From: Candidatus Acidiferrales bacterium
GTDB lineage: Bacteria > Acidobacteriota > Terriglobia > Acidiferrales > UBA7541
Assembly (NCBI GenBank): GCA_963738985.1
Contig: CAVTYP010000014.1
Span: forward strand, 20,907 to 84,906
Direction of reading: 5' to 3'
DNA length: 64,000 bases
Made by a program: the position numbers and the translations under genes. Of this stretch, positions 11,103 to 49,535 are shown one piece after another (positions within the stretch are counted from its first letter, which is position 1; each line of letters opens with the position of its first letter). The notes under the pieces were generated by a model. That model saw only the letters and a program-made list of their open reading frames with translations, was not told the origin of the DNA and did not search any database.

Positions 11103-11169
11103 ACCAAAATCCTTTCTATGGAGAAAGTGGGATCGGAAATATCCCAAGTGCCGGAAGTATACATCGAAA

Positions 11170-17717: not shown

Positions 17718-17825
17718 ATTTCTGTCTCTGCAAGGATAACAAATCTTCTGGAATCGCGCCCCGGAACCCGAACAGGGCGCAACGGGTCGTCATTGCATTC
17801 ACCGGGCTGCACGTTTCAAGAGAGA

Positions 17826-18722: not shown

Positions 18723-18856
18723 TCTACCTCGGCAACGAGCAATGTCCAGTGCCGAAGCACGCGTCCCAGCCGATTGTATGGACTTTGCTCTCCTTGAGTG
18801 TAGAATTCTGTAGCGCTTGACGCCGCACGAATCCCGTCAATTGGGATGACGAAAAC

Positions 18857-20119: not shown

Positions 20120-20248
20120 GGCTTGCGCGGGAACGCCTCTGAATGTGATAGCCGACCCGACTACGCTATACTCAAAACATCAGGTGAAACGCGCAAACTA
20201 GGGAAGGGCGTGCTCCCGCATTCTCCCAAACCGGCGCGGACCAAGCCG

Positions 20249-21067: not shown

Positions 21068-21084
21068 GAGCGCGCGACTCAAGC

Positions 21085-25076: not shown

Positions 25077-25092
25077 AGGGACAGGTGGCGAA

Positions 25093-26985: not shown

Positions 26986-27238
26986 CGATAAGAAGGAACT
27001 CTCTCGACTTCAACAGACAAGCAGTGGGCAAGGAAGTACCTGCCCCACAGGCCAGTCACGCATTGGAACATCCTGTGACGGCAATCATTTACGGAATCAT
27101 TTGTTTTATCTAATGTAGATGAAAGCCGTAGTGTTGCAGTCGTAAGATGACTTGCACTTTAAGCCCTCCTCTGGAGGCATTCAAAATCTTCGCCGGCAGG
27201 AGCCCCTCTGCCTCGTCGGCACGCGAAGCGACAAGCTC

Positions 27239-31644: not shown

Positions 31645-32466
31645 TTAGTCGACTTGCGTCAATGTGCGCACATGAAGCTCAAGAGCCTGGTTATATTGCC
31701 GCTCAATCTGCAGCTCCGTCTGCAGCTTCTTGATCAGCAATTCGAGATGCGCAATTTCCGCGCGCAGCTTTTGCACGTCACTTACATGCGATGTCGGCCG
31801 CGAGCCAACAGGCGGGTTTGCGGCGTGAGGCTGCTGCGATGCAGCCGAACTCTGCTGGACAAAAGCCTCTGCCAGCGCTCGTGGCCACGCCGAATCCGTG
31901 GACCTCTGCTCAGCCACATTTGGCGACGGTACGGGCACAGGCTGCATGGGCGGTCGAGGTTGAGGAACGGTGGACTGTTGTGGCGCAAAAAGACTGCTCA
32001 ACGAAGGTCCGCCAGCAGGACGCTCCGTTGCCACCAGTGGGGGCGCGGCGGTGTGACCCAGCAGATTCTTCACCCGGCCAATCAATTCCTGCGGCTGAAA
32101 CGGCTTTCTGACCAACTCGTCGGCCTGCACGGCCACGGCACGATCGGCAACGTTCTTATTCACCACGCCTGACATCAGAATCACCGGCGTCTTGCCATAC
32201 GTGGGACTCTGCTTGATCTGGCTGCACACCGAATAGCCATCCTGGTCCGGCATGATTACGTCTGTGATGACCACGTCGGGCGGATGCTCTTCGAACTGCG
32301 AGAGCGCCGAGGAAGCATCGGAGCAAGTAATCACGTGAATGTTTTCGCGGCGAAAAGCGATCTTGATGACTTCGCGCATTGTCGCGCTGTCATCAATGAA
32401 ATAGACATTGGGTGTGTGCTTCGCTTCCGCCTCGCTGAGCGGCGGCATGGCGATAGTCTCGCTCAC
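31645..32466 (-). CDS. response-regulator receiver protein with Pro-rich linker and C-terminal coiled coil
   Basis: REC motifs VYFIDDS ... VVITDVIMPDQDG ... VRKPF. The tail is VQKLRAEIAHLELLIKKLQTELQIERQYNQ. Confidence 0.75.
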   Translation of the reverse strand: MSETIAMPPLSEAEAKHTPNVYFIDDSATMREVIKIAFRRENIHVITCSDASSALSQFEEHPPDVVITDVIMPDQDGYSVCSQIKQSPTYGKTPVILMSGVVNKNVADRAVAVQADELVRKPFQPQELIGRVKNLLGHTAAPPLVATERPAGGPSLSSLFAPQQSTVPQPRPPMQPVPVPSPNVAEQRSTDSAWPRALAEAFVQQSSAASQQPHAANPPVGSRPTSHVSDVQKLRAEIAHLELLIKKLQTELQIERQYNQALELHVRTLTQVD

Positions 32467-33239
32467 AAAGCCTCCTTGTCCGCTAGTTCATTGTCGTGAA
32501 GGTTTTCGTCGAATTCGCGCATCGCATCCAGCATCAAGTCAGTCGCCGAACGCAAAACAGTTCGCTGCGCGGAACTTGCACCGTATACAAATTTGTACAC
32601 GCCGGTAGACTGCACGCAGCTTTTCAGGATGTGCAGCACGGCCTCGTCGCCAAACAAGGCGCCACACTCTGCGTGGACAATCTCGCCGGCATCAAAAAAC
32701 AGGACCGCGTCCGTTTCTCCCGCGTTGATCGTCAACGCGCCGCTCTGGTGTGCGTGCCCGAGCATTTGCATCACGCCGGTCAGGTCATGATGGGTCAAAT
32801 TGCCGCTCAGGCTGGTATCCGCTTGTCCGAGCATCTGCGTCGGTTGGAAACCGTCGACCTTGCTGATGATGATGTTCTTGATGTGTGTGGCGATGGTAGC
32901 CGGGGCCAGATGGCGATCGATGTAATCGTCGCAACCGGCTTGAAATGCCTCCATCAGGGCGCGCTGGCTTCCGTCACCCATCGCGATAATTGGCAGTAAA
33001 GCGTTTTTCGCGTCGGAGTGCACGATTTTTGCCATTTCGAGAGCGCCCATTTCGCGCATCTTGGTGGCGCAGACAATAGCGGCCGGAGGGTCATACTCCA
33101 GCGTGGTCAATGCAAATCCCGCTTGCGTGCTGATGGTGACCTCAAATCCCTCGCGCTTCAGCGCGTCGCCAAGGCGCTTGGCAAACAGCACATTGCTGTC
33201 GATCAAAAGGACTTTGGCGGCTTTGCCCGGAACGATCAT
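32463..33239 (-). CDS. receiver domain fused to a DUF4388 (PATAN-like) domain
   Basis: N-terminal REC (KVLLIDSNVLFAKRL ...). The C-terminal GNLTHHDLTGVMQMLGHAHQSGALTINAGETDAVLFFDAGEIVHAECG...GDEAVLHILK is the DUF4388 pattern. Confidence 0.65.
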   Translation of the reverse strand: MIVPGKAAKVLLIDSNVLFAKRLGDALKREGFEVTISTQAGFALTTLEYDPPAAIVCATKMREMGALEMAKIVHSDAKNALLPIIAMGDGSQRALMEAFQAGCDDYIDRHLAPATIATHIKNIIISKVDGFQPTQMLGQADTSLSGNLTHHDLTGVMQMLGHAHQSGALTINAGETDAVLFFDAGEIVHAECGALFGDEAVLHILKSCVQSTGVYKFVYGASSAQRTVLRSATDLMLDAMREFDENLHDNELADKEAL

Positions 33240-35388: not shown

Positions 35389-38370
35389 CTATCCGACCGG
35401 CACGTTCGGGCGTGCCGCCTCCGTGCCCATCAATTGCTCGACCGCCGCCAATAGCTGATCTTCCTGCACCGGTTTGGTGAGGAACGCCGCCGCGCCTTCC
35501 TTCAGCGCACGGTCGCGGTGTTTTGCGCCTGCGCGCGAGGTCACCACCATCACCGGTATGCGCCGCGTCGACGGGCTCTGTCGCAGCTGCGCCATCAATT
35601 CGTAACCGGTCATGCGCGGCATCTCAAGGTCTGTGATCACCAGGTGACAGCCGTGTTGTGCCACCAGTTCGGCTGCTTCCAGACCGTCCGCGGCCAGCTT
35701 GATGCGGTAGCCATTCTTTTCCAGCATGCGGCCGACGAATTTTCTGACGCTGATGGAATCGTCTGCGATCACGATGACGCGTTCCTGCTCCACGCGATCG
35801 ATCGCGTCGGTGGGAATCGTGCCGCGAGCCACGGCTGTGGATCCGGGCGCGAACACGCGTGCGGCGCTGGCACTTGCCTGGATCGCGCGGCGGTCGTTGG
35901 GTTCGCTGGCCACCATGCGGTTCAAATCGATCAGCAGAATCAAACTGCCGTCGGGCGCGATCGTCGTACCGGGGAAAAGTTTTACGCGGCGCAGGTATTC
36001 ACCGAGATTCTTGATCACGATTTCGTCTTTGCCGAGAACCTCCTCGACTACCAGGCCGATCTGACGGCTTCCGGCATTTGCCACCACCATCCGGAAATAG
36101 CCGTTGATAGGCTCTAACGGCGGCAGGCCCAAATAGGAGTCCAGGCGCACCACTTCGGTGACTACGTCGCGGACCTTGGTGAGCAGCTTCCCGCCAACAT
36201 CTTCAATTTCATCGGCGCGGATTCGACGAATTTCCTCGACCACCGCCAGCGGCAAGGCAAAGTGGCTCGAACCGCAGCGCACGAACAGAGCGGGCGAAAT
36301 AATCAGCGTGAGTGGAACCTTCAAGGTGAACTTGGTGCCTTGTCCGCTGGTGCTCTGCACTTCAATTTCGCCATTCAGCGCGTTCAGGTTGGAGCGCACG
36401 ACATCGAGCCCGACACCGCGGCCGGCAAGTTCGGTTTTCACGGAAGCCGTGGAGAAGCCGGGGTGAAACAGCATTTCGCGCAAATCGCGTTCGGTCAATC
36501 GGCCAGCCGTCTCCTGAGATACCAACCCAGATTCGATCGCGGTTTGCTTGACGCGCTCGTAGTCGATACCGCGACCGTCGTCCTCCACCTCGATGTAAAT
36601 GTGATTGCCCCGGTGGTAGGCGCGAAGAAGTACTTTGCCCTGCTCGGATTTCCCGGCCAAGGCCCGATCTTCGACGCCCTCGATTCCGTGGGCCACCGAA
36701 TTACGCACCAGGTGGACGAGGGGATCCGAAATCTGCTGAATAATATTATTGTCGAGTTCGGTCTCGCTGCCGGAGAAGTCCAGTTCGACATGCTTCCTGG
36801 CTGATTGTGCGGCGTCGCGTACCGTGCGCGACAACAGGGAATATAGCGTTCCGATGGGAACCATTCGCGCCGCGGTGATTTCGTCTTGCAGATGGTGCGC
36901 CAACTTCGTGAATTCGTCGATGTCGCCTTCCACGCGCCCGATAAAACCTTCCAGTTGCGACAATACTTCGTTCACGTCTGCGGAAATTTCTGTCATGGAC
37001 CGCGACAGAATGTTGAAGTCGTCGTACCGGTCCATCTCCAGTTCGCCGAAATCCTCCCAGAACGCGCCATCACCGGCGGCAGCGTTGTTCAGTATTTGCT
37101 TGGTCTGTTTTGCCGCCCACGGTGTGCCTAGTTGTGTGTTGCGAATGCGGTTGAACTCATACTTATCCTGGAATTCGCTGACTTTGCCTTGCAGGCGTTC
37201 TTTGGAAAAACTGAGTGTTTCGATCAGCTTCTCGAGTTCCGCGACGCGGCCCACCATTTTGGTGCGGTTGATCACCAATTCGCCGACTGTGTTCATCATG
37301 CGGTCTAGCCGTGCAAGCGCGATGCGCACCGACTTTGCTACTGGCGTAGGTTTCTTTCCGGCGGGTTGCGGGGTCTTTGCGATCGCTTGTGTTGTCGCCG
37401 CTGCGGCCGCATCTTCTTCGGCCGTAAACTCGGGAGCAGGGACTTCGGCCGATTCTTCTTCGGCGTCTTGCGGCGCGAATTCTGCCACTCGGCCAAGCAA
37501 CGAATCCACGCCAGCGCGCATTTCGGCTTCGTCAGCCCACTCGCGGCGCAACGTCTTCTTCAGCACGTCGACCGAAGCGAGACACAGATCCACGACCGCG
37601 GGCGAAGGCTGAATTGCTCCATCGCGCAGGCGCCCAATCAAATCCTCCACGCGGTGCGCGATCGCTCCCAAACGCTTCAGGCCAACCTGCGCGGCCGAGC
37701 CTTTCACGGTATGTATCGCGCGGAACAACCGATTCACTTCTTCCGGATTGTTGTTGCCTTCCAGAGACAGCAGGCAATCGCTCACCACTTGCAGGTGTTC
37801 TTCCGCTTCCGGCTGGAAAAATTCGAGGATTTCGTCGGGAACCTCATCGTCGGCGGGAAGAGCATCGAAATACGATCCCGTTAGCCCGGTCTGAGCCGCG
37901 GGAGGTTCTTCAATCGAACTGTAGAGGCCAGTGGGTCTGTCCTGTTCCGTAGCTTCCAGATTCAGCGGCGGTGGATCGGGCGGGAACGCGAAGCGGTAGC
38001 GCTCTTTAAACGTGGCCACGTCCTCCACATTCTCCTGACCGGTATCGCTGATTTCGATCAAGCTCGTTTCCAGCAGGGAAATGCCGTCGGACAGAAATTC
38101 GGTCAGCGGCCCGTGAAGATCGTCGCCCAGCGGCGCGTTCAGTGCATATTGGAAGATGTGGGCGAGTTTTCCGGCCACTTCGGAAAATCGCGGAAAGCCG
38201 TAGCTCGCCGAAGTTCCCTTCAGCGTGTGAGCAGCGATGTATAGCCGCTCCATATCCTCTTGCCGCGGAGTGACTTCTTGTAGCACACCGACGTACTCCC
38301 GCAGATACTGCAGGTGCTCCGAAGCTTCCTGGAGGAAAAGCTCGACGGCTTCGCGATCCGGCGTACTCAC
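35389..38370 (-). CDS. cheA: hybrid chemotaxis histidine kinase CheA (2x HPt - dimerisation - HATPase - CheW - REC)
   Basis: Two HPt sites AHTLKGTSASYGF and IHTVKGSAAQVGL. N-box DPLVHLVRNSVAHGIE. GRGVGLDVV. C-terminal receiver VIADDS...LVITDLEMPRMTG...LTKP. The start is assigned to GTG 38370, overlapping the cheR stop (GTGA). Confidence 0.9.
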   Translation of the reverse strand: MSTPDREAVELFLQEASEHLQYLREYVGVLQEVTPRQEDMERLYIAAHTLKGTSASYGFPRFSEVAGKLAHIFQYALNAPLGDDLHGPLTEFLSDGISLLETSLIEISDTGQENVEDVATFKERYRFAFPPDPPPLNLEATEQDRPTGLYSSIEEPPAAQTGLTGSYFDALPADDEVPDEILEFFQPEAEEHLQVVSDCLLSLEGNNNPEEVNRLFRAIHTVKGSAAQVGLKRLGAIAHRVEDLIGRLRDGAIQPSPAVVDLCLASVDVLKKTLRREWADEAEMRAGVDSLLGRVAEFAPQDAEEESAEVPAPEFTAEEDAAAAATTQAIAKTPQPAGKKPTPVAKSVRIALARLDRMMNTVGELVINRTKMVGRVAELEKLIETLSFSKERLQGKVSEFQDKYEFNRIRNTQLGTPWAAKQTKQILNNAAAGDGAFWEDFGELEMDRYDDFNILSRSMTEISADVNEVLSQLEGFIGRVEGDIDEFTKLAHHLQDEITAARMVPIGTLYSLLSRTVRDAAQSARKHVELDFSGSETELDNNIIQQISDPLVHLVRNSVAHGIEGVEDRALAGKSEQGKVLLRAYHRGNHIYIEVEDDGRGIDYERVKQTAIESGLVSQETAGRLTERDLREMLFHPGFSTASVKTELAGRGVGLDVVRSNLNALNGEIEVQSTSGQGTKFTLKVPLTLIISPALFVRCGSSHFALPLAVVEEIRRIRADEIEDVGGKLLTKVRDVVTEVVRLDSYLGLPPLEPINGYFRMVVANAGSRQIGLVVEEVLGKDEIVIKNLGEYLRRVKLFPGTTIAPDGSLILLIDLNRMVASEPNDRRAIQASASAARVFAPGSTAVARGTIPTDAIDRVEQERVIVIADDSISVRKFVGRMLEKNGYRIKLAADGLEAAELVAQHGCHLVITDLEMPRMTGYELMAQLRQSPSTRRIPVMVVTSRAGAKHRDRALKEGAAAFLTKPVQEDQLLAAVEQLMGTEAARPNVPVG

Positions 38371-39251
38371 GCGCGTCCCTCCGCTACCAGTTCCCCCTTG
38401 AACAATTCTTCTGCCGTTGGCTTTCGGTACAAGATGCAATCGCCCAGAACGATGGCCTGGAATTTCACCGGCATTTTGGAAATGGACTCGGAGTGCCCGA
38501 GAAATAGATATCCGCCCGGCTCCAACGCTTCGTAAAAGCGCTGCACCAGGGTCTGCCGGCGTTCTTCCGTAAAGTAGATCAGCACGTTCATGCAGAAAAT
38601 AAGGTCCATGCGGCCCAGATATACCGGTGACGCCAGATTCATCTGAGCAAACGAAATCATTTTGCGTAAGCGCGGTTTTACCTGAAACCCGCCATCGACC
38701 GGCGTAAAGTGTGCGGCCAGTTGCTTCTCGCTTACGCTGCCAATGCTGCGGCCGGAATAGGTGGCGCGCTCAGCGTGACGCAGCGCTTGTCGGCCCACGT
38801 CCGTCGCAAGGATTTCCACATTCCAGGCATCGGCAAAGGAAAGGGAATCCACGATAGTGATGGCGATCGAATAAGGCTCTTCACCCGTGGAACAACCAGC
38901 GCTCCACACGCGCAGTGTTCGCGGATTGGTCCAAAATTTCTTGGTGTGTAGTTCAGGCAACACGCGCTTTTCAAATGCGTCGTATACTGCCGGATAACGG
39001 AAGAACGAGGTCTCCTGGGTTAGCAACCGCTCCAGAAGGGCCTCGTATTCTACATTCGATTTGCGAATGGTCCGCAGGAGATCACCGCCACGCTGCTGTT
39101 CCTTCGCGTGCAGATGCTCTCGCACGCGCGTGGAGAAGAATCTCTCTCGCGATTCGTCGAAGTGAATGCCCGTCCGCTCTTCAATCAGCATGCGGATCTC
39201 GCTCAATTCGTGTTCGCTCAAACCGTGTCCCGCCCCGTGGCGTTCGCTCAT
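38367..39251 (-). CDS. cheR: chemotaxis protein methyltransferase CheR
   Basis: ETSFFRYP, RVWSAGCSTGEEPYSIAI, IFCMNVLIYF. Confidence 0.9.
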   Translation of the reverse strand: MSERHGAGHGLSEHELSEIRMLIEERTGIHFDESRERFFSTRVREHLHAKEQQRGGDLLRTIRKSNVEYEALLERLLTQETSFFRYPAVYDAFEKRVLPELHTKKFWTNPRTLRVWSAGCSTGEEPYSIAITIVDSLSFADAWNVEILATDVGRQALRHAERATYSGRSIGSVSEKQLAAHFTPVDGGFQVKPRLRKMISFAQMNLASPVYLGRMDLIFCMNVLIYFTEERRQTLVQRFYEALEPGGYLFLGHSESISKMPVKFQAIVLGDCILYRKPTAEELFKGELVAEGRA

Positions 39252-40753: not shown

Positions 40754-41284
40754 TTAAATGCTCGGCCCCGGATACACTTCCAACAACCGGTGTAGATCGA
40801 TCACCAGCGCCAGGCGATCGTCGTGACGAAGCATGCCGATGCAGTGAGGCACGTTCTCCGGCGCCTGTTCCAGCAAATCTTCCGCGTCGTTCACCGAATA
40901 AGTCCCGACAACTTCGTCTGCCGCGATGCCAATCCTTAAATCCTCGTGATGACCGCCACCGCGTAGCGAGGCGACTACGACGTGCTTCGGCAGCAGTCCC
41001 GGCCGCCGTCCCTCCGTCATCGCGATATCGATCAACGGCACAATCGCGCCACGCAAATTGAAAATGCCCAGGACGTATGCTGGGGCGAGCGGCAACTTCG
41101 TCACCAGCGGCCACTCCAGAACTTCTTCGACGTCCAGCACCGGAAAACAGAATCGTTCACGCCCGCTGCGGAATACGCAGTACTGCGATTCCGGCGGACG
41201 CTCACCAAGCGATCCCAGCGACTCGAGCAAGTCGCCCATCTCCGCGTCGGCGGGAAGCGGTGCCAGATGGAAATCTTCATTCAT
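40754..41284 (-). CDS. cheW: CheW coupling protein
   Basis: [23 protein letters not shown]...[20 protein letters not shown] is the canonical CheW pattern. Confidence 0.85.
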
Positions 41285-41302
41285 TCGCTAAGCCCTCGGC
41301 TC

Positions 41303-41665
41303 CTAAACAAAACGGCGAACTGCCCGCAGCAAATCTTCACGAGTGAAGGGCTTTGTGACGTAGCCATCCGCTCCCTGCTGCTCGCCCCAGTACTTGTCAC
41401 TCGGCGAATCTTTCGAGGTCACCAGGATCACGGGAATCGCATTGAACTCCGCGTTGCCCTTTAACTCGCGGCAAACCTGGAAGCCGTTACGCTCTGGCAT
41501 CACCACGTCCAGCAGAATTATGCTGGGCCGGTCGCTGGCCAGAAATTCTTCCACGCGTTTCGGGTCGTTCAGTCCGACCGGCGCGTAGCCCTCCGGCTCC
41601 AGAAGCCCCTGAATGAACTTCACTTGAGCCGGCGAATCATCGACAATGAGCACTTTTTTCTGCAC
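41303..41665 (-). CDS. cheY: CheY-like single-domain response regulator
   Basis: GTG start. KVLIVDDSPAQ ... IILLDVVMPERNGF ... ILVTSK ... YVTKPF. Confidence 0.85.
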   Translation of the reverse strand: MQKKVLIVDDSPAQVKFIQGLLEPEGYAPVGLNDPKRVEEFLASDRPSIILLDVVMPERNGFQVCRELKGNAEFNAIPVILVTSKDSPSDKYWGEQQGADGYVTKPFTREDLLRAVRRFV

Positions 41666-41702
41666 AAGCTTTCACTCCACATGGTTCTCCACAACGGAAA
41701 AA

Positions 41703-41718
41703 TGCACGTCAGCGGCCA
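41703..41718 (-). promoter_or_regulatory. candidate sigma-54 -24/-12 element upstream of cheY-cheW-mcp
   Basis: The minus strand reads TGGCCG-CTGAC-GTGCA. GG-N10-GC spacing is correct and 7 of 10 consensus positions of TGGCAC-N5-TTGC match. It lies about 38 nt upstream of the GTG start at 41665. Confidence 0.3.
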
Positions 41719-41798
41719 GCTTGGCGGTTCCGTGTTGAAAGTTGTCCAGTTTTGTTAACGCTATGAAAATGCGGGTGTTGCTCGCGTTCCGGCCGGCC

Positions 41799-42593
41799 CT
41801 ATCGGCGCGGAAACAGCGAAGCCGACGCTTCTTCCGTCTCAGCTTGAGAAGACGTCTCAGCCTCTCGCATCTCGCTGGCAAGCGATGAGAATCTTTGCAT
41901 GATTTCATTAATGCGCAGCGCCATGGTGTGAATGGTTTTCAGTTGCGCCAACGACTGTGCGGAAAGTTCTCCTGGTTCCAGCAGCAGCAATTCCGCATTA
42001 CCCAGCAGGGAAGTCAGCGCATTGTTCACACTGTGCTTCATATCCATCATGTAGCGCCCCAGCATGGCGTGGTTGGCATTTTGCGCCGCGCGTTGTTCGG
42101 CGTGTCTTGCCAGGCGTTGCGCTTCGGTGCGCCGAAGCGATTCGCCCGCCATCAGCAGGACCACCTGGGTCCAATCCTCGCGCAGCGGCACCTGCAACAA
42201 ACGCGGGTAGCGTTTGCGCAGCAGTCCGAATTCTTGCGGCTCGGCCGGCGCACAAAGAATCACGGCCGTGTTCGGCTCGATTCCGCGCAGCACATCGGTC
42301 AGCTTGGTTTCCTTCAGCGGCCCGACAACCAGTAAGTCGGCGCTCAGGGTCTCGCCATGCGCGCAAAAGTCGCCGGTCAAAACCGAAATCCCCGGCAGCT
42401 GACGTTCAGTCTGCCAGCAAGCTGTCAGCAAACGGGCGAATTCGCTGTCATCGGTCAGAATCAGTACGCTTGTATTTCGCAATGGAACCGGGCTCCCTGA
42501 CTGTTTTTCTTGCGCCTGCTCGCTGTGCAGCAGGGAATCAAAGTTTTTCGGCTTCGTCCAACGCGGACAGCAGGCGCTTGGTGCTGATGCCAA
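41799..42593 (-). CDS. degenerate receiver-like domain fused to an orphan HisKA/DHp domain (no ATPase domain)
   Basis: C-terminal H-box MMDMKHSVNNALTSLLGNAELLLL resembles the neighbouring kinase H-box VAHEVNNPLAAILGFTDLLL, and the protein ends about 70 aa later with no N/G boxes. The N-terminus (VLILTDDSEF...ADLLVVGP) is REC-like but lacks the conserved Lys context. An alternative TTG start at 42482 would remove the 56-nt overlap with the upstream gene. Confidence 0.55.
   Translation of the reverse strand: MASAPSACCPRWTKPKNFDSLLHSEQAQEKQSGSPVPLRNTSVLILTDDSEFARLLTACWQTERQLPGISVLTGDFCAHGETLSADLLVVGPLKETKLTDVLRGIEPNTAVILCAPAEPQEFGLLRKRYPRLLQVPLREDWTQVVLLMAGESLRRTEAQRLARHAEQRAAQNANHAMLGRYMMDMKHSVNNALTSLLGNAELLLLEPGELSAQSLAQLKTIHTMALRINEIMQRFSSLASEMREAETSSQAETEEASASLFPRR
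41834..41862. promoter_or_regulatory. GTCTCAG repeat cluster (candidate enhancer-binding sites)
   Basis: ccGTCTCAGcttgagaagacGTCTCAGcc. The two GTCTCAG copies are 18 bp apart, and the first forms TCTCA-gct-TGAGA inverted arms. The cluster lies 116-144 bp upstream of the 41703-41718 element, inside the 3' end of the preceding CDS. Confidence 0.35.
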
Positions 42594-44001
42594 GATTTAC
42601 CGCCGCCTCCGTGTCTTTTGCCTGCTTGGCAACTTCCACGCGTTCCTGCAAACGTGAAACTTCAACACGCGCGATCGTCAGCGCGCTCTCCAGTCCGTTG
42701 TTATCGCCGGATTGCTTGGCGTGTTCCAGCGCGGCTGTTACCAGCGCGCGCGCCACCACCGCGCGGCGCAAATCTTCGGCCGCCGGCCCGTCTTCGCTCA
42801 CGAATGCCGCCACTTCCCATGAGGACATCAGCAAGCGCGCCCCACCGAGGCGGACGGTGGTCATGGAGCGCCCGCGCGAGGGCGTCGCAGCAATCAACTG
42901 CTCCCAGATCTGCTCCATGCAGGTTTCAAAATCGAGCGGTGGAGTGTCGCCATCCTTTGCCGAAGACGGACCACTTCCTGCGCCTTCGCCCTTTTCCGTG
43001 CCCGCCGACGTGGTAGACGCAGCGGTTGCTGGAGATGGCGGCGCAACTTTGGGCGCTTCTACTGGCTTACCCAGTACTTTTTCCATGGTGCGTTCGACGT
43101 CTGCGCGCAACGACAGCAGCTTGTCAAAGGCCTGATTAACCGAGCGTTCCGTGTATTCCTTCTGGAACGGCTGCTTCCATTCGTCTGCCAGTTGCCGCAC
43201 TCTCGCGACAGGTTCCGCCGCGGTCAAGCCGAATGATTGGCAGTCCACCGTGCGCGTCCCTGCGGATTCCAAGTGCGTCAAGCCGGAACGAATGAAGATC
43301 AAATCGGCGTGCATCAATTCAATCAGCGTGCGCCGCAGCAAGAAGTTAAACCGCACAAAGGCCAACATCGCCGAAGGATCGTAGAACATTCCTCCCGCGC
43401 TCTCCTTCACCCTGCGCCCTTGATCGATAAAGTTGGTTTTCAGGATGTCGCGCAGGCTCTTGAAAGCGCGCAGCGACGCAATCATTTTCTCCAGCGGCTC
43501 GCACCAGGGTAGCGGGGCCGTGTCCACTTCTCCCAGCACCGGCTTCATCACGTGCGCCACGTCACCCAGTTCAATTTGCTTGTGATAGGTCTTTGCCGGA
43601 GCGCAAAGCGCGAAATACTGCACCAGCAAAAAGTCGATTTTGTCGCGGTCGGTAACGCTCTTGGAAGGTTTCTTCAAATGCCGCATGATCAACGCGCGCA
43701 ATCCGCTTTCGCTGGCGTTTAGCGTGGTCATCTGCAGCAGGTGGCGCAACTGGTGAACCAGCACGCGCTGATCCATGGAGTCCAGCCACGTGTGCACCTG
43801 GGTGAAGAGTTCAAGCTCCGCCTTTTCCGGCAGCACTCGTTTGTTCGGCGGAAAGGGAATCTCAATCTGCAGATGTTTGGCGAGCGCAAGATAGATGGGG
43901 AAAACCGAGCGATTTTCCACCCATTGCGCTTGCCGCGAGTTGTCCAGCTTCGGCGGTGCCGGTATATTCAGCGTTGTCATTTTGTTCACGGCTGCATCCA
44001 A
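42538..44001 (-). CDS. hypothetical 487-aa protein, predicted mostly helical, with a central Pro/Ala/Ser/Gly-rich linker
   Basis: Long ORF with coding-like composition, co-directional and overlapping its neighbours by 16 and 56 nt. I recognise no motif. Confidence 0.6.
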   Translation of the reverse strand: MDAAVNKMTTLNIPAPPKLDNSRQAQWVENRSVFPIYLALAKHLQIEIPFPPNKRVLPEKAELELFTQVHTWLDSMDQRVLVHQLRHLLQMTTLNASESGLRALIMRHLKKPSKSVTDRDKIDFLLVQYFALCAPAKTYHKQIELGDVAHVMKPVLGEVDTAPLPWCEPLEKMIASLRAFKSLRDILKTNFIDQGRRVKESAGGMFYDPSAMLAFVRFNFLLRRTLIELMHADLIFIRSGLTHLESAGTRTVDCQSFGLTAAEPVARVRQLADEWKQPFQKEYTERSVNQAFDKLLSLRADVERTMEKVLGKPVEAPKVAPPSPATAASTTSAGTEKGEGAGSGPSSAKDGDTPPLDFETCMEQIWEQLIAATPSRGRSMTTVRLGGARLLMSSWEVAAFVSEDGPAAEDLRRAVVARALVTAALEHAKQSGDNNGLESALTIARVEVSRLQERVEVAKQAKDTEAAVNLGISTKRLLSALDEAEKL

Positions 44002-44315
44002 TCGCAGGGGCCTTGCAGAAATCTGACGGCCACTGCCTTACGTCCTTCGTGATACTGCAGGGCGATCACCGCGGCTTCCGCCCCTCGTCCCTTGCCATCC
44101 CGAATCACACGTACGCGCTCATCGAACTCCATCGGCAGTGTCGACAGGAAAATGGCGTATTCCGACGCGCCAAATTCCACTACCGTCGACTCTTGCAATT
44201 TCGCCTGACCGGGCCGCAGCGATTGCACTCGCACGGGTATGCGCACAGCTGGGAGCGTTGGAAAGAATCGCGCAAGTTGTTCCGCACATCCCTGCTCATT
44301 CGCAAGTAATGCCAT
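43986..44315 (-). CDS. small PilZ-like beta-barrel protein (degenerate)
   Basis: RxxxR present (AVRIPVRVQ), followed by TVVEFGASEYAIFL where PilZ proteins have D/NxSxxG. The size (109 aa) fits a single PilZ domain. Confidence 0.35.
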   Translation of the reverse strand: MALLANEQGCAEQLARFFPTLPAVRIPVRVQSLRPGQAKLQESTVVEFGASEYAIFLSTLPMEFDERVRVIRDGKGRGAEAAVIALQYHEGRKAVAVRFLQGPCDWMQP

Positions 44316-44427
44316 CTTTCGCTTTACCCCGGCGCCAATGGTCTGTTCGAGCTACGAGCTTTAGCCGCAAGGAGTGTGGAAGCGCACACACGGCACGGCC
44401 AGGAACACAATGTCCCGAGGAGGGAAT

Positions 44428-44443
44428 TGCACGCAGAGCGCCA
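44428..44443 (-). promoter_or_regulatory. candidate sigma-54 -24/-12 element upstream of the PilZ-like/487-aa/DHp genes
   Basis: The minus strand reads TGGCGC-TCTGC-GTGCA. Spacing is correct and 8 of 10 consensus positions match. It lies about 113 nt upstream of the ATG at 44315. Confidence 0.3.
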
Positions 44444-44523
44444 CATGTCAGTATGAATCTTGAATTTGGAAGTAACGGAAATGAAGGGGCTTAGGAATTT
44501 CCCGTTTGGATTCGTTCGCCCAA

Positions 44524-44596
44524 TGTCTCAGGCTGAAACGCTACTGTCTCATTCCCACTTGCGACAATCGCGCTCTTTCCTTAGACACTTGAGACG
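44524..44596. promoter_or_regulatory. TGTCTCA / TGAGAC repeat cluster (candidate enhancer-binding sites)
   Basis: TGTCTCA at 44524-44530 (extended as GTCTCAGGCTGA) and again at 44545-44551, exactly 21 bp apart. An inverted TGAGACg sits at 44590-44596. The cluster lies 82-154 bp upstream of the 44428-44443 element. Confidence 0.35.
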
Positions 44597-44599
44597 GCC

Positions 44600-46027
44600 T
44601 CAGCGCCCAACTCCACGAGCTTGCTCTTCTTTTGCCGGACCTTCTGGCGTTTCGCCGCGCAGGGGAATGCTGTAGCGCTTCAGTTTTCGGTACAGCGTGG
44701 CGCGACTGATTCCCAACATTTTTCCAGCCAGGGCTTTGTCGCCATTGGCCTGTTCAAACACGCGCAGGATGGTCATTTTTTCCATTTCGGCTAGTGCCGT
44801 GGTGGAGAGGCTGGCGGCGTCTTGTGGTGTCATCGTCTGGCCTAAAGGCTGTTCGGCGCGGATAGATGGCGGCAGATCTTTCACGTCGATGATTTCCTGA
44901 TCGCCAAGCGTCACGCCTCGCGCAATACAGTTTTCCAGCTCGCGCACATTTCCTGGCCAGTCGTATTGCAGCAGGCTCTTCATGGCTGCCGCCGTCACTT
45001 GAAGGTGCGTGGCGGGTGCGTAGCGGTTCAGGAAGTGGTGCACCAGCATGGGAATGTCGGAGCGGCGTTCGCGCAGTGGGGGCAGATGAACGGTGACCAC
45101 GTTCAAGCGAAAATAGAGGTCCTTACGGAAGGTGCCTTCGCGATACGCGGACTCCAGGTCGCGGTTCGTTGCCGCAATCACTCGCACGTCCACGTTCACT
45201 TTATCGTTGCTGCCCACGGGTCGTACTTCCTTTTCCTGCAACACGCGCAGCAACTTGGTCTGCATTTCCAACGGCAATTCGCCAATCTCGTCCAGAAACA
45301 GCGTTCCGCCGTTCGCCGCCTGGAATAGGCCTGATTTCGAGCGAGTCGCGCCCGTAAATGCGCCCTTCTCGTAGCCAAACAATTCGCTCTCCATCAGCGT
45401 TGGCACCAGCGCTCCGCAATCGACGGCGACAAAGGGTTCTTGGGCCAGCGCACCCTTGAAATGGATTGCTCGCGCCACCAGTTCCTTGCCGGTGCCACTC
45501 TCTCCGGAGATCAGGACCGCAGTCCGCGTATCTTTCAGCCGCGAAATCATCCGCAGTACATCCTGCATCCCGGAAGAGGTTCCAATGATTCCGTCGAGGT
45601 TCTCTTCGGTGTTTACGCGCTCCCGCAGGAACGCATTCTCGTTCACCAGGCGCACCTTTTCCGCCATGCGCTGCAAAAGCAGGCGAAGTTTTTCCACACG
45701 AAATGGTTTTTCGATGTAGTCGTAAGCGCCCAGCTTCATTGCATCCACCGCAGACTCAATCGAGCCGTGGCCGGTCATTATGGCGATTTCCGTGCGCGGC
45801 AATATATTGCGGACCTGCTTCAGCAGTTCGACTCCCGACTGGTTGGGCAGTTTCAAGTCGGTCAGCACCAAGTCGGGCGGATCGGTTTCCAGTCGCGTAA
45901 CCGCGGATTCCGCGCTTTCGGCTTCGCTGCAGGTGAAGCCCAGGGAGGTGCCGATGGTCATGCAAAGTCGCCGGATGCTCTGCTCATCGTCCACTACCAG
46001 TAGTTTGGTTTTCAGATCTTCGCTCAT
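44600..46027 (-). CDS. NtrC-family sigma-54-dependent response regulator (REC - AAA+ - Fis-type HTH)
   Basis: Receiver LLVVDDEQS...LVLTDLKLPNQSG. Walker A GESGTGKE. Sigma-54 contact loop GAFTGA. C-terminal HTH LGISRATLYRKLKRY. Confidence 0.9.
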   Translation of the reverse strand: MSEDLKTKLLVVDDEQSIRRLCMTIGTSLGFTCSEAESAESAVTRLETDPPDLVLTDLKLPNQSGVELLKQVRNILPRTEIAIMTGHGSIESAVDAMKLGAYDYIEKPFRVEKLRLLLQRMAEKVRLVNENAFLRERVNTEENLDGIIGTSSGMQDVLRMISRLKDTRTAVLISGESGTGKELVARAIHFKGALAQEPFVAVDCGALVPTLMESELFGYEKGAFTGATRSKSGLFQAANGGTLFLDEIGELPLEMQTKLLRVLQEKEVRPVGSNDKVNVDVRVIAATNRDLESAYREGTFRKDLYFRLNVVTVHLPPLRERRSDIPMLVHHFLNRYAPATHLQVTAAAMKSLLQYDWPGNVRELENCIARGVTLGDQEIIDVKDLPPSIRAEQPLGQTMTPQDAASLSTTALAEMEKMTILRVFEQANGDKALAGKMLGISRATLYRKLKRYSIPLRGETPEGPAKEEQARGVGR

Positions 46028-46425
46028 GGTTTTCCGAATGTTGTCTCCACTATCGAAATCAGTTGTTGCACCCGAAAAGGCTTTTCAATGCAGGGTGTCG
46101 CGCTGTCTCGCAGCAACGTTTGCGTCTCACTGTTGGCGGTATCCCCGCTGATCAGAATGATTCGTCCACTCAGGTCCGGCCGGTTCTTCTTGATCCAGTG
46201 GTGCACGTCGGCGCCATTGATGCTGCCCGGCATTCGAATGTCGGAAATGACTCCTGCATAATCGCCGGCCGCGAGATGCTCCAACCCTTCCGCGCCCGAA
46301 GATGCTTGCACGACGGAATAGCCACGACGCTGCAACGCCGTGCGCACGAAGGCTCGCACCGAAGCTTCATCCTCAATTAACAGGATGGGCGAGATTGCCT
46401 TTGTCGCACTGCTGGACTCGCTCAT
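46024..46425 (-). CDS. single-domain response regulator
   Basis: ILLIEDEASV...GVISDIRMPGSINGAD...ILISGD...IEKPF. 4-nt overlaps with both neighbours. Confidence 0.85.
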   Translation of the reverse strand: MSESSSATKAISPILLIEDEASVRAFVRTALQRRGYSVVQASSGAEGLEHLAAGDYAGVISDIRMPGSINGADVHHWIKKNRPDLSGRIILISGDTANSETQTLLRDSATPCIEKPFRVQQLISIVETTFGKP

Positions 46426-48755
46426 CTACCTGCCTCTTTCGCTGCCGCTGCCGCAATCGCGTTTTCAGTGGCCTGCGGCAGGCGCACCACGAAGGTGCTG
46501 CCTCGCTCTTCCGTTTCTGGATTATTCCAGCAGAGAATCTCGCCGCCGTGAGCTCGCACAATTCCATAGCAGATGCTCAAGCCCAGCCCGGTTCCTTTTC
46601 CCGCCTGCTTGGTGGTGAAGAAGGGATCGAAAATGCGTTCAGGTTCGGAAACGCCAGTTCCATTGTCGATGAACGCCACTTCGATGGAGTCCTGCGTGCG
46701 CCGCGTGCGGATGCGGATTCTGCCGTGATTTCCGGACTCCTGGATAGCGTCGTAGGCGTTGTTCAGGACGTTCAGGAATACCTGCTGCAGTTGCTGCGAG
46801 TCCCCCAGAGTCGGACCGATTCCTTCGTCGAATTCCTCCACCACGTCTACGCCATGGCTGGAAAAATCGTAGCTTCGCAGCTTGATGGTTTGCCGCAGAA
46901 TCGCATTTACCTGCACCGGTTCGCGCTGTGTTGGCTTTTGCCGCGCAAAACTCAGCAAATCCTGCACGATCTCTTTCGTTCGCTGGGTCTCTTGCAGAAT
47001 GATCTTCAAATCCTCGCGGGCAGATTCCGGGACAGCGGGATTTTCCAGTAACAGGTCCGTGAAGCCCAAAATCGCTGCCAGTGGATTGTTCACTTCGTGC
47101 GCCACGCCGGAAACTAGCCGCCCGATCGTCGCCATTTTCTCCGAATGCGCCAGTTTCGCCTGTAACAACGCGGCATCGGTAATGTCTGTCATGACCACTA
47201 CAACATTGTTTACTTGCCGGTTCTCGTCGCGCATCGGGCTCAAGCTGATGGAAAAATGTCCCATCGAACCATCGCTGCGCCGCACTCGCAACTCCAGATT
47301 CTCCACCTGCTGCCCTTGCGCCGTGGTCTGCAGCGCTGCTTCGAAGTCTTGCCGGTGCGACGCTTCCACCCACTCTTCCAACCGGTGGCCGATCATTTCA
47401 TTTTCGTGATAGCCCGCTTCGTAGCAGCGTCGGTTCGCATAGCTGGTCAGCCCGGCCGTATCCAGCACCAGGATCATGCTCTGCGTGGTGTTTAATATTT
47501 TCTGGTTAAAGTCGCGCTCGCGCTGCAGTTGCGACTGGAACATCTTTTGTTCCGTCACGTCCAGCATCAGCCCGCGTGTCTGTACGACATGACCTTGTGT
47601 ATCCCTCACCGCGCTGATGTTCTGCATGGTGTGCAACAGGCTGCCATCTTTTCGCCGCAGTGTTTCTTCGTAATTCCGCAATGTGCCGCGTTCCGCGATG
47701 GCTTCCACAAAGCGTTTCTTTGCGGCAATTGTTGGATAGAGGTGAGGGCTGACATCGGCGCGCAGAAGCTCCTCTCGCGACTCATAACCCAGCATGCGCA
47801 CCATGGCGTCATTGACGTCAAGAAACTGACCATCAGGTGTGGCGAAAAACAAGCCTTCCTGGATGCTGTCAAAGAGCTCGCGGTAACGGCGTTCCGCTTC
47901 AAGGCGATCCGTGATGTCCTTGAGGACGTGAATCGTGCGGGCGTCTTCTTCCGTTGCTCCGCGCGTGCGCGATGTCGACACAAGAAATGTGCGGCCCTCG
48001 GCCGTCGCGGTGTACTCTTCGCGCGCTTCTGTAGTGTTCCTGCAGAATGGGCAAGGCAGCGCGCTGCCGGTTTCTGCGATGTGACGCAAGCTGGTAACTA
48101 GTTCGCCGACCAACGCAACGGGCGACACTCCCAGATGAGTTGCCAAAGAGCGATTCGTGCGCACGATCTTCCAACTCTGATCGTGTACCACGATGTAATC
48201 GCTGATTGCGTCGATGTCCTCGACCCACTGTTTTTTGGAGCGCTCCAGTTGCGAAAAGCGCCGCACCTTTTCCATGGAAAGCGCCGCGTGGCTGGCCAGT
48301 GCGGTCATCAGCTTTTCTTCCGCGGCAGAAAACTCGGCGTTCGCTCGAATCACGCACAGCGTACCCATCAGTTCGCGATCGCTGGCGTAGATCGGGAACA
48401 TCCCGCAATAAGCTGCACGCTCCGGCAAGCGCGCCACCTGCAAGCCGCTTCGCTTGGCGGCGATGTTCTCCAGCAGCCAGTCCCAATCTTCCCTACCGCC
48501 CGGGAAATCCTTCACCGGAGAGTACAGCTGTACGCGATTTCCAGAGAGTTCTCCGACGCCGCCCCACTCCCCCCCCAACATTTCTGCCGCGCGCGACGCA
48601 AATGCTGCCAGAAACGCGGGCAGCTCGCGCGAGTTGGCAGCGGCCACCGCCAAATCCATTAATTCTTCGGCATGATCGATTTTTGCGCGGTTCGACAGCT
48701 TGCGGCCCTTGGGTGCCGCACGACGACGAGCAGAGATAGACTTTCGTCCACGCAT
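46422..48755 (-). CDS. cytoplasmic GAF - 3x PAS sensor histidine kinase
   Basis: No hydrophobic segments. PAS-like repeats. H-box GVAHEVNNPLAAILGFTDLL. N-box LNVLNNAYDAI. G-box [15 protein letters not shown]. Confidence 0.85.
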   Translation of the reverse strand: MRGRKSISARRRAAPKGRKLSNRAKIDHAEELMDLAVAAANSRELPAFLAAFASRAAEMLGGEWGGVGELSGNRVQLYSPVKDFPGGREDWDWLLENIAAKRSGLQVARLPERAAYCGMFPIYASDRELMGTLCVIRANAEFSAAEEKLMTALASHAALSMEKVRRFSQLERSKKQWVEDIDAISDYIVVHDQSWKIVRTNRSLATHLGVSPVALVGELVTSLRHIAETGSALPCPFCRNTTEAREEYTATAEGRTFLVSTSRTRGATEEDARTIHVLKDITDRLEAERRYRELFDSIQEGLFFATPDGQFLDVNDAMVRMLGYESREELLRADVSPHLYPTIAAKKRFVEAIAERGTLRNYEETLRRKDGSLLHTMQNISAVRDTQGHVVQTRGLMLDVTEQKMFQSQLQRERDFNQKILNTTQSMILVLDTAGLTSYANRRCYEAGYHENEMIGHRLEEWVEASHRQDFEAALQTTAQGQQVENLELRVRRSDGSMGHFSISLSPMRDENRQVNNVVVVMTDITDAALLQAKLAHSEKMATIGRLVSGVAHEVNNPLAAILGFTDLLLENPAVPESAREDLKIILQETQRTKEIVQDLLSFARQKPTQREPVQVNAILRQTIKLRSYDFSSHGVDVVEEFDEGIGPTLGDSQQLQQVFLNVLNNAYDAIQESGNHGRIRIRTRRTQDSIEVAFIDNGTGVSEPERIFDPFFTTKQAGKGTGLGLSICYGIVRAHGGEILCWNNPETEERGSTFVVRLPQATENAIAAAAAKEAGR

Positions 48756-48776
48756 AGGGGTTAGGGGCTCTGCGTG

Positions 48777-48943
48777 TGTCTCAATTTAGGAAACCACGCA
48801 CTCCCAAACTACTGAGCAATCTCATTCTGAGTCAATCCCCGTTCCACTTCGGAGTTCGCATGCGTTACCCTGCACCCGCCGTCAGAGCCCAGCCGCGTCT
48901 CAGCCTGAGATCAAACCGATGGACCGCCCGGCGGTTTGAGACG
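48777..48943. promoter_or_regulatory. TGTCTCA / GTCTCAG-CC-TGAGA / TGAGACG repeat cluster in a divergent intergenic region
   Basis: TGTCTCA at 48777-48783. GTCTCAGCCTGAGA at 48897-48910 has palindromic arms TCTCA/TGAGA. TGAGACg at 48937-48943. The cluster lies 117-283 bp upstream of the 49060 sigma-54-like element and just upstream of the divergent kinase operon. Confidence 0.4.
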
Positions 48944-49059
48944 TTTGGTGGAACTTTCCTCGAGGTGCATCATTTTCATTTCGCTCGTATCTAATTGCAG
49001 AGTAAGCGCTTGCGACGCCAATCAGCGCTTTTGCTCTTTCTTTCCGCTACTCTTCGTCC

Positions 49060-49075
49060 TGGCATTGCACTTGCC
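49060..49075 (+). promoter_or_regulatory. candidate sigma-54 promoter (-24/-12) for the TonB_C - Che2 operon
   Basis: TGGCAT-TGCAC-TTGCC matches 9 of 10 defined positions of TGGCAC-N5-TTGC with correct spacing. It lies about 41 nt upstream of the GTG at 49116, which is preceded by AAGGAGG (49104-49110). Confidence 0.55.
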
Positions 49076-49115
49076 TTCTCTCCGTTGGGGTAATTTCCCA
49101 CCCAAGGAGGATGTG

Positions 49116-49463
49116 GTGTCCATTCATAGTGGATGGGGAAAGGCGATTCTCGCGCTGGTCGCGACGGGGGTGTTGGCCGGATCCTTTGCGCTTGCACAAC
49201 AGGCCAACGTCGAGGAAAGCAAGAGGAAGGTCAAGGTGAGGGCCAATCCAGCGTATCCGGAACTGGCTAAGCGGCTAGGTCTCGGCGGGAAGGTCCGCAT
49301 TGAGGTGGTCATTGGTACGGACGGCAAGGTGAAGAATTCGCGCGCTATCGGCGGTCATCCAGTTCTCGTGCAGGCGGCGACGGATTGTCTTCGCGAATGG
49401 CGCTTCGAGCCGGCGCAAGAGGAAACCACGCAAGTGATCGAGTTCGAATTCAAGCAGCAGTGA
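49116..49463 (+). CDS. small secreted TonB C-terminal-domain protein
   Basis: GTG start 5 nt after AAGGAGG. Signal-like KAILALVATGVLAGSFALAQQ. TonB_C pattern ANPAYPELAKRLGLGGKVRIEVVIGTDGKVKNSRAIGGHPVL...A...WRFEP. Confidence 0.7.
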   Translation: MSIHSGWGKAILALVATGVLAGSFALAQQANVEESKRKVKVRANPAYPELAKRLGLGGKVRIEVVIGTDGKVKNSRAIGGHPVLVQAATDCLREWRFEPAQEETTQVIEFEFKQQ

Positions 49464-49535
49464 GCTACGCGCGGCGAGTTGACTGAGAGGGCGGCGCTTC
49501 AACTGGTTGTTTAGGGGAGCGGAGGAAGTAACGCA

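Follow-up and report, generated by a model that had tools for sequence, protein, structure and literature searches.

The ABC locus in Candidatus Acidiferrales

The 64,000-nucleotide stretch of DNA analyzed here (hereafter, the window) comes from Candidatus Acidiferrales bacterium (contig CAVTYP010000014.1 of assembly GCA_963738985.1, positions 20,907 to 84,906 of the forward strand) and contains an array of signaling genes. Within this array, three genes of the minus strand, denoted A, B and C, are located between the gene for an NtrC-like sigma-54 activator and the first gene of a chemosensory (che) operon. These genes may encode accessory components of a chemosensory pathway, and they include one uncharted protein family (B). 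All three co-directional open reading frames (ORFs) on which the original prediction was based are present, and the starts of B and C were set from the lengths of homologs combined with the DNA sequence, instead of being taken from the maximal ORFs, which yields the following gene calls:

43986..44315, minus strand: gene A, 109 amino acids, from the ORF and its homologs
42538..43989, minus strand: gene B, 483 amino acids, GTG start supported by homologs
41799..42482, minus strand: gene C, 227 amino acids, TTG start (the maximal ORF extends to 42593)
44600..46027, minus strand: NtrC-like sigma-54 activator of the receiver (REC)-AAA+-helix-turn-helix architecture, with the GAFTGA motif (Pfam Sigma54_activat, E-value 3e-71)
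41303..41665, minus strand: cheY, first gene of the che operon driven by promoter element P2 (see below)

The GTG start of B at 43989 overlaps the TGA stop of A as GTGA, suggesting that the two genes are translationally coupled. The TTG start of C at 42482 is preceded by a GGGAG ribosome-binding site and separated from the stop of B by 55 nucleotides, and the resulting length of 227 amino acids is that of most homologs listed. Accordingly, the description of the three genes as mutually overlapping applies to the maximal ORFs only and fails for B and C once the homolog-supported starts are used.

In a set of 5.8 billion proteins, approximately 3975 homologs of B, 2770 of C and 885 of A were identified, originating from Candidatus Acidoferrum/Acidiferrales (Acidobacteriota, Terriglobia); A, B and C are thus real, strongly conserved genes. 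Where named, the homologs are annotated as 'hypothetical protein' and, in the case of C, also as 'signal transduction histidine kinase'. No earlier description of the trio was found in the literature. An Rfam scan of positions 41000-49500 returned zero matches, and scans for sigma-70 promoters and terminators gave background levels only.

Conservation of gene order

Relatives of B were detected in 238 species-level genomes, and 80 of the loci were retained for the analysis of gene order; a second scan, seeded with distant relatives of B, covered metagenomes. In all 80 retained species-level loci, the genes are arranged on one strand in the order HK-REC-NtrC-A-B-C-CheY-CheW-MCP-CheR-CheA, where HK stands for the histidine kinase with PAS domains (PAS kinase) that forms a two-component system with the NtrC-like activator, and MCP for a methyl-accepting chemotaxis protein. 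The metagenome scan shows that this 11-gene order is kept in Terriglobia/Acidoferrales at only 32-40% identity of B, and one locus in this identity range contains the full set on through CheB, two CheW and a regulator combining REC with PatA_N. The frequency with which the neighbors are retained depends on the divergence of B as follows:

B identity of at least 60%: A in 122/122, C in 119/119, che genes in 111/111, adjacent NtrC-like gene in 104/113 loci
B identity below 40%: A in 16/24, C in 15/23, che genes in 20/22, adjacent NtrC-like gene in 12/17 loci

Among close relatives, the link between A-B-C and the che genes is unbroken. The link between the NtrC-like gene and A is interrupted by insertions of 1-4.5 kb in four loci, and in one further locus (L032) NtrC is absent within 10 kb of A. 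Altogether, more than 160 loci bear out the expectation that the trio would be conserved together, and in synteny, with the che genes and with the NtrC-like operon.

Nine contigs encode B proteins that are 70-93% identical to the one in the window and nevertheless carry labels of Alphaproteobacteria, Eisenbacteria, Verrucomicrobiia, Limnocylindrales, Limnocylindria, Eremiobacteraceae, Baltobacteraceae, Dormiibacterota and Elarobacter. These are probably mis-binned or mislabeled metagenome-assembled genomes, not cases of horizontal transfer.

Protein C contains a HisKA domain and no ATPase domain

Protein C consists of an N-terminal alpha/beta domain and a C-terminal dimerization and histidine phosphotransfer (DHp) domain of the HisKA type. 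The HisKA model (PF00512) matches residues 142-202 with 24.3 bits and an E-value of 3e-5, compared to a gathering score of 26.9, and is matched by all 19 diverse orthologs searched (best E-value 5e-8). No HATPase domain was detected in C or in its 19 orthologs, and C ends 77 residues past the histidine. The original reading of the C-terminus as an H-box related to that of the neighboring kinase and lacking ATP-binding boxes is thus upheld. A complete sensor kinase is ruled out, given that there is no HATPase_c domain with N and G boxes.

The conservation of the H-box was assessed in 141 orthologs, some of which are just 33% identical to C. The H-box histidine singled out by the original prediction, His150, is conserved in 139 of these sequences; Asn153 is kept in 137 and Asn154 (H+4) in 138, whereas Thr157, Ser158, Gly161 and Asn162 are present in all 141. 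Position H+1 is occupied by Ser (105 sequences), Asn (25), Gly (7) or Asp (4), i.e., is non-acidic in 137/141. In HisKA kinases, kinase activity alone depends on the acidic residue at H+1, and phosphatase activity alone on the Thr or Asn at H+4 (PMC3510030). With the acid missing at H+1 and the Asn kept at H+4, C bears the signature of a phosphatase without that of a kinase.

The N-terminal domain shows a (beta-alpha)-type periodicity and contains an invariant Asp11. There is no Pfam match to the receiver domain (PF00072) in the 19 orthologs, and comparison with two REC profiles using hhalign gave probabilities of 0.3% and 9%, with collinear alignments over 101-112 columns, so that the earlier description of this domain as a degenerate receiver is not statistically established. 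The sole significant PDB match of this domain, 6xeh (E-value 8e-4), is a protein designed de novo. When an alignment with REC is forced, the position of the phospho-acceptor Asp is occupied by Gly54 in 141/141 orthologs, and the residue beside it is Asp in only six distant orthologs; a phospho-acceptor at the end of strand beta3 is not present in this alignment. The domain is possibly a pseudo-receiver, although one that can be called receiver-like only arguably.

At the other end of the protein, a 25-residue tail alone follows the DHp, and the alpha/beta domain resembling the catalytic and ATP-binding (CA) domain that is typical of Spo0B and ChpT is absent, which rules out assignment of C to the Spo0B/ChpT type. 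The only natural DHp domains among the PDB matches to the C profile are those of RetS and of a histidine kinase.

Protein A adopts a PilZ-like fold

The AlphaFold2 (AF2) model of A (predicted local distance difference test score, pLDDT, 83; predicted template-modeling score, pTM, 0.78) consists of one helix and six strands. The top matches of this model in a Foldseek search of the PDB are mostly PilZ domains, including BcsA, MotI, YcgR, Alg44, VCA0042, MrkH and PA0012, with template-modeling (TM) scores of 0.5-0.6 and E-values from 2e-3 to 5e-2. The six-stranded beta-barrel characteristic of PilZ (PF07238) is therefore recognizable in A from AF2 and Foldseek, and the PilZ guess made previously from sequence is correct at the level of the fold.

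The sequence motifs tell a different story. In the window, A carries R25-IPV-R29 and no DxSxxG, as originally read; however, the RxxxR motif on which the PilZ guess relied is not conserved. Although R25 is kept in 132 of the 151 orthologs of A, position 29 is Arg in 62 (41%), Gln in 61 and another residue in 28. The D/NxSxxG motif is absent from A, and the corresponding strands read E47-F-G49...A54-I-F56-x-S58. The Pfam PilZ model matches none of 23 diverse orthologs, even at E-values of up to 10, and A has no other Pfam or NCBIfam match and no match in a PDB profile search. Judging from the model, A is a PilZ protein in fold only, lacking both the motif and the profile similarity that mark members of the family. 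Because R29 is not conserved, D/NxSxxG is missing and the Pfam model fails to match, binding of cyclic di-GMP (c-di-GMP) by A appears doubtful, and the protein would be expected to behave like the non-binding PilZ adaptors, not like a canonical c-di-GMP receptor.

Protein B represents an unannotated family

When clustered at 50% identity, the B family yields 578 or more clusters; its members reach down to approximately 30% identity and are organized into two conserved blocks joined by a Pro/Ala/Ser-rich linker of variable length, which is far longer in some members (proteins of 780-785 amino acids). The AF2 model, computed from an alignment of 50 sequences (pLDDT 87), includes an all-helical N-terminal domain (approximately residues 15-305), a disordered Pro/Ala/Ser/Gly linker (306-353) and a C-terminal domain (354-483) formed by one helix, a beta-hairpin and three long helices. 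Residues R82, D119, K195, R219 and E392 are invariant, and the family signature is K-[VLI]-D-[FY]-L-x-V-Q-Y.

No Pfam or NCBIfam match was obtained for B, nothing consistent emerged from a Pfam scan of 50 members, and a PDB profile search yielded matches to the low-complexity linker only. The best Foldseek match of the model in the PDB has an E-value of 0.046 at a TM score of 0.2 (designed repeats, Rap and TPR proteins) and was taken as a non-match. Thus, B is helical with a Pro/Ala/Ser/Gly linker and no recognizable motif, just as predicted, and neither sequence nor fold searches place it in any characterized family. A fusion of the B and C genes was sought among 150 representatives and none was found.

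The most distant paralogs of B (L166, L082 and L081; about 31% identity) lie in unrelated surroundings that lack che genes, which indicates that the B family is wider than the che-linked clade; several of the distant relatives whose context was looked up are encoded on contigs of about 2 kb. In L166, the paralog (10001-11443) adjoins a PHO4 transporter, and in L082 (9800-11545) it is encoded 2 kb from a PilZ-domain gene. In another distant relative, P0509 (590 amino acids), which its source names 'TonB family protein', the N-terminal domain alone is combined with a segment predicted to span the membrane and with a TonB C-terminal domain; in the window, too, a TonB_C gene standing by itself is the first gene of the neighboring sigma-54 operon.

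Putative sigma-54 promoters and a shared enhancer motif

A sequence was considered a sigma-54 promoter if it contained GG-N10-GC close to the consensus TGGCAC-N5-TTGCA, was positionally conserved and was accompanied by upstream sites and a cognate bacterial enhancer-binding protein. Three such elements were identified around the trio and the two che operons that flank it:

44428..44443, minus strand: P1, sigma-54-type -24/-12 element TGGCGCTCTGCGTGCA, 128 nucleotides before the ATG of A
44525..44595, minus strand: sites upstream of P1, namely dyad GTTTCAGCCTGAGAC at 44539-44525, TGAGAC at 44551-44546 and GTCTCA at 44595-44590
41703..41718, minus strand: P2, sigma-54-type -24/-12 element TGGCCGCTGACGTGCA, 53 nucleotides before the start of cheY
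41836..41859, minus strand: P2 enhancer in the 3' coding region of C, namely TGAGAC at 41859-41854 and dyad TCTCAAGCTGAGAC at 41849-41836
49060..49075, plus strand: P3, TGGCATTGCACTTGCC, ahead of the TonB_C gene and the second che operon
48897-48910 and 48937-48942: dyad sites of P3, of the TCTCA-N3-TGAGAC type, approximately 124-164 nucleotides upstream of P3

The gap between the NtrC-like gene and A is 285 nucleotides long and contains P1. In 111 of 139 orthologous loci, the best GG-N10-GC located approximately 95-175 nucleotides upstream of A has at most three mismatches to the consensus, and the equivalent of P1 in one distant lineage is perfect (TGGCACCCGCTTTGCA). In a footprint of 81 sequences of this gap, the P1 element and the upstream GTCTCA/TGAGAC hexamers are the main conserved blocks, the hexamers being the main blocks upstream of P1 with conservation of at least 90%. 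Similarly, within the gap between C and cheY (80 sequences), conservation is highest in P2, which is found with at most four mismatches in about 128 of 133 distinct loci and is preceded, 120-125 nucleotides upstream, by TGAGAC in some 120 of 130 loci. The arrangement of P3 and its upstream dyad is conserved in 91 loci. The TGAGAC/GTCTCA dyad is located roughly 85-165 nucleotides upstream of each of the three promoters, and 8 of the 17 TGAGAC/GTCTCA hexamers of the 64-kb window belong to the P1, P2 and P3 clusters.

The enhancer of P2 coincides with the end of the C coding sequence, where T is almost always the third base of codons 208 and 214, whichever amino acid is encoded. In addition, E209 and E215 are encoded by GAG in 131 and 134 sequences, compared to GAA in 6 and 0, respectively, whereas other Glu codons in the tail of C are a mixture of GAG and GAA. 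These frozen synonymous sites indicate that the P2 enhancer is selected at the DNA level, and such selection explains, at least in part, the conserved 'AET..SQAET' tail of C.

At the sequence level, then, elements, dyads and an adjacent GAFTGA activator are found for P1, P2 and P3 alike. A-B-C would form its own sigma-54-dependent transcription unit, belonging to the same regulon as both flanking che operons, and the NtrC-like activator is the probable regulator of all three promoters, in which case the pair formed by the PAS kinase and this activator would switch on A-B-C together with both che operons. The original prediction gave the position of the trio correctly, between a sigma-54 two-component operon and a che cluster, but by treating it as simply embedded there missed its own sigma-54 promoter and the enhancer motif that it has in common with both che operons.

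A further TGAGAC is present at 48778-48783 on the minus strand, 23 nucleotides upstream of the ATG of the PAS kinase (48755) and downstream of a sigma-70-like TTGACT-N17-TAGTTT pair. It may be an autoregulatory site of the HK-REC-NtrC operon.

Comparison with known signaling systems

With its N-terminal domain, C-terminal HisKA and conserved histidine, C has the composition that defines the 'HisKA, no HATPase' proteins, which P2CS lists under the label 'possible incomplete histidine kinase' (PMC5847659). Members of this set are mainly archaeal, contain PAS or GAF domains at the N-terminus and have been proposed to be phosphatases or phosphoacceptors, although none has been studied experimentally (PMC5847659). 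Unlike them, C has a compact alpha/beta N-terminal domain and a fixed place at the head of a che operon in Terriglobia, and it systematically has no acid at H+1. With respect to the determinants defined in CrdS and HK853 (PMC3510030), C keeps the Asn at H+4 but has lost the acidic residue at H+1. The DHp domains of CrdS, HK853 and EnvZ are either parts of bifunctional full-length kinases or engineered fragments, whereas C would be a natural phosphatase-only DHp. Zhu, Qin and Inouye are said to have found in 2000 that the DHp domain of EnvZ alone dephosphorylates OmpR~P.

Protein A can be likened to non-canonical PilZ-fold proteins without c-di-GMP motifs (the PA2960/XAC1133 type, and the PilZ-related domains surveyed in bioRxiv 10.1101/814665) in being a small, stand-alone six-stranded barrel with degenerate motifs, and PlpA (PMC8316039) in being a PilZ-type protein tied to a motility-type signaling cluster. 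Unlike the non-canonical PilZ proteins, A is missed by the Pfam PilZ model in all orthologs searched.

At the level of the whole locus, the combination of a che cluster with a regulator resembling NtrC and a further protein of the kinase type is reminiscent of Che3-CrdS-CrdA in Myxococcus xanthus (PMC3147164) and of Che3/CheS3 in Rhodospirillum centenum (PMC3868531). However, CrdA is the output of Che3 in M. xanthus, whereas the NtrC-like protein here appears, from the promoter sequences, to drive the che operons, so that the logic is reversed; and CheS3 of R. centenum is a complete REC-kinase, in contrast to C, which has neither an ATPase domain nor a phospho-acceptor Asp. The che genes themselves resemble the type IV pili (Tfp)/PatA type represented by the Pil-Chp system of Pseudomonas aeruginosa and the Tax1 system (PixG/PixH) of Synechocystis (PMC11181946), with which they have in common the order CheY-CheW-MCP-CheR-CheA, a CheA with two Hpt domains and a C-terminal REC, and a regulator combining REC with PatA_N (PATAN). 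Unlike in those systems, there are no pilus genes nearby, and A, B and C have no counterparts there. Tfp/PatA-type chemosensory systems are not known to be controlled by sigma-54.

Possible functions of A, B and C

From the conservation of the genes, of their linkage, of the C motifs and of the promoters and enhancers, combined with the folds of A and B, we infer biochemical activities, partners and a regulatory link that could fit together as follows. The adjacent PAS kinase and NtrC-like activator would turn on a regulon that consists of A-B-C and the two flanking che operons. A, B and C would then serve the downstream pathway made up of CheY, CheW, MCP, CheR, CheA, CheB, two CheW and the REC-PatA_N regulator. 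Within it, C might form a dimeric DHp four-helix bundle which is unable to use ATP and docks a receiver domain of the pathway via the conserved face of the H-box, acting most likely as a dedicated phosphatase and, less likely, as a station for histidine phosphotransfer. The phosphatase role is suggested by the fact that no CheZ, CheC or CheX (-FliY) domain was detected by Pfam in A, B, C or the genes of the cluster, leaving no homolog of these phosphatases to fill it. A could be a PilZ-fold adaptor in which the c-di-GMP site is largely lost, and B a two-domain scaffold with a flexible tether; the two are probably paired and might localize or gate C or the output of the pathway. Taken as a whole, the reading of A-B-C as an accessory chemosensory operon, with C as a DHp-only phosphatase and A and B as localizing or gating factors, is one that we favor tentatively, its likelihood falling somewhat short of even. 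In its strongest form, in which C would be a natural phosphatase-only DHp founding a new class of receiver phosphatases and B a new family without structural precedent that, together with A, tethers or gates it at the signaling array or its output, the proposal is rather unlikely.

Several observations weigh against the favored reading. The DHp of C is 34% identical over 70 residues to that of the neighboring PAS kinase, which is also the best match to the C DHp profile within the window (E-value 2e-10, compared to 3e-4 for the other kinase); this similarity could mean that the target of C is instead the sigma-54 two-component system. C is lost while CheY is kept in five distant lineages, and in two others CheY is absent while C is kept; this patchy loss does not support a strict or exclusive C-CheY pair. 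Moreover, the DHp hairpin of C and the fold of its N-terminal domain are deduced from sequence, the mechanistic handle on A and B is limited to their folds, the Foldseek E-values of A are modest even at best, and type IV pilus genes were sought in the rest of the window and none were found.

The first of these points leads to the possibility that C, once induced from P1 by the phosphorylated NtrC-like protein, provides feedback on the sigma-54 two-component system, either by dephosphorylating the NtrC-like protein or the single-domain REC, or by pairing with the DHp of the PAS kinase to give inactive heterodimers, as in the case of RetS and GacS. Such a function would be compatible with the location of C in a unit apparently driven by that very system and with the presence of RetS among the few natural DHp structures matched by the C profile. 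Nevertheless, positions H+7, H+8 and H+12, established as kinase-regulator specificity positions by work on EnvZ and HK853, are T-S-N in C and A-A-F in the PAS kinase, and C stays beside the che genes in loci from which the two-component operon has been displaced or in which it is not found within 10 kb (L032, L108); we consider feedback of this kind unlikely. If, instead, the conserved histidine of C passed phosphate between a che receiver, for example the C-terminal REC of CheA, and the NtrC-like activator, C would be a shuttle of the Spo0B/ChpT type that couples chemosensory input to sigma-54 transcription, as in the case of Che3 and CrdA in M. xanthus. Convergence of chemosensory and classical two-component systems on an NtrC homolog has a precedent (PMC3147164), as does the flow of phosphate between the hybrid kinases of a che cluster (PMC3868531), and here conservation of the che cluster goes together with that of the NtrC-like system. 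The missing CA-like domain and the Asn at H+4, a phosphatase signature, nonetheless make a shuttle decidedly improbable.

The PilZ fold of A with no conserved c-di-GMP site, the length, helicity and flexible tether of B, and the REC-PatA_N regulator at the end of the che operon could also be understood if the trio were a non-catalytic localization or polarity module comparable to the PilZ-like PlpA of Myxococcus, to FrzS, which combines a pseudo-receiver with a coiled coil, or to the cyanobacterial HmpF, whose gene adjoins a Tfp-type che operon, in which the DHp of C would be nothing but a dimerizing coiled coil. In M. xanthus, PilZ proteins have a role in the regulation of motility (PMC8316039), and the REC-PatA_N class is reported to bind the pilus motor in Synechocystis (bioRxiv 10.1101/2021.06.11.447907). 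However, a near-invariant H-box (the His together with N153, N154, T157, S158, G161 and N162) at 33-40% overall identity would be unexpected in a structural coiled coil, the window lacks pilus genes, and FrzS, HmpF and PlpA did not turn up in the searches, none of which was aimed at them; a purely structural role is accordingly quite unlikely. Finally, the che-less contexts of the most distant B paralogs would be expected if A, B and C were unrelated passengers between two signaling operons. This view is hard to reconcile with co-occurrence that amounts to 100% in close relatives and is still seen at about 32% identity, with the promoter type and enhancer motif common to the trio and the che operons, and with a P2 enhancer that is built into the coding sequence of C, and we regard it as very improbable.

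Flanking signaling genes and other genes of the window

The che operon driven by P2 encodes CheY, CheW, MCP, CheR, CheA-REC, CheB, two CheW, REC-PatA_N, a further protein in which REC is joined to an unassigned region (REC-X) and, last, a protein of 164 amino acids. CheA contains two Hpt stretches and a C-terminal REC (residues 889-1001). The end of this operon, the single-domain REC of the two-component operon and the second che operon are located as follows:

32463-33239, minus strand: REC-DUF4388/PatA_N regulator, at the end of the che operon
31645-32466, minus strand: 273-amino-acid REC protein, with no assignment for the C-terminal 140 residues
31100-31594, minus strand: ORF of 164 amino acids with no Pfam match
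46024-46425, minus strand: single-domain REC of 133 amino acids
48936-49463, plus strand: TonB_C gene, first gene of the second, classical and divergent che operon, followed by MCP (from 49536), CheW (51558), CheR (52043), CheA (52987) and CheB (55083)

The maximal ORF of the CheA of the P2 operon (TTG at 38439) overlaps CheR by 73 nucleotides (38367-38439). Many alignments with CheA orthologs begin at approximately residue 27-30, which suggests that the true start is probably some 80-90 nucleotides downstream. Positions 27152-29650 encode a hybrid kinase of PAS-GAF-PAS architecture that also has a REC domain. Upstream of the signaling array, positions 15208-26421 are occupied by a set of heme biosynthesis genes that encode GlutR/HemA, porphobilinogen deaminase, HEM4, ALAD, an aminotransferase, URO-D and a HemN-like radical SAM enzyme.

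Implications

Pathways of the Tfp and alternative cellular function (ACF) types that lack CheZ or CheC-type phosphatases repeatedly raise the question of how their phosphoryl signals are terminated and routed, for which C is a concrete, testable candidate, being a conserved DHp-only protein at the head of a che operon with the signature of a phosphatase but not of a kinase. If this proposal is true, a phosphatase-only DHp would join CheZ, CheC/CheX/FliY and the phosphatase domain of Rhodobacter sphaeroides CheA3 among the dedicated receiver phosphatases. In any case, the C family offers an abundant and well-defined entry to the catalogued but uncharacterized 'HisKA, no HATPase' proteins. The candidate partner of C, protein B, belongs to a widespread family with no Pfam model or structural neighbor, for which a high-confidence AF2 model is now at hand. 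The hosts of A-B-C are mostly uncultured, and three sigma-54 promoters combined with one dyad enhancer, a copy of which is placed in a coding sequence, provide a simple model of how two chemosensory systems might be induced in a coordinated manner in uncultured, globally abundant soil Acidobacteriota.

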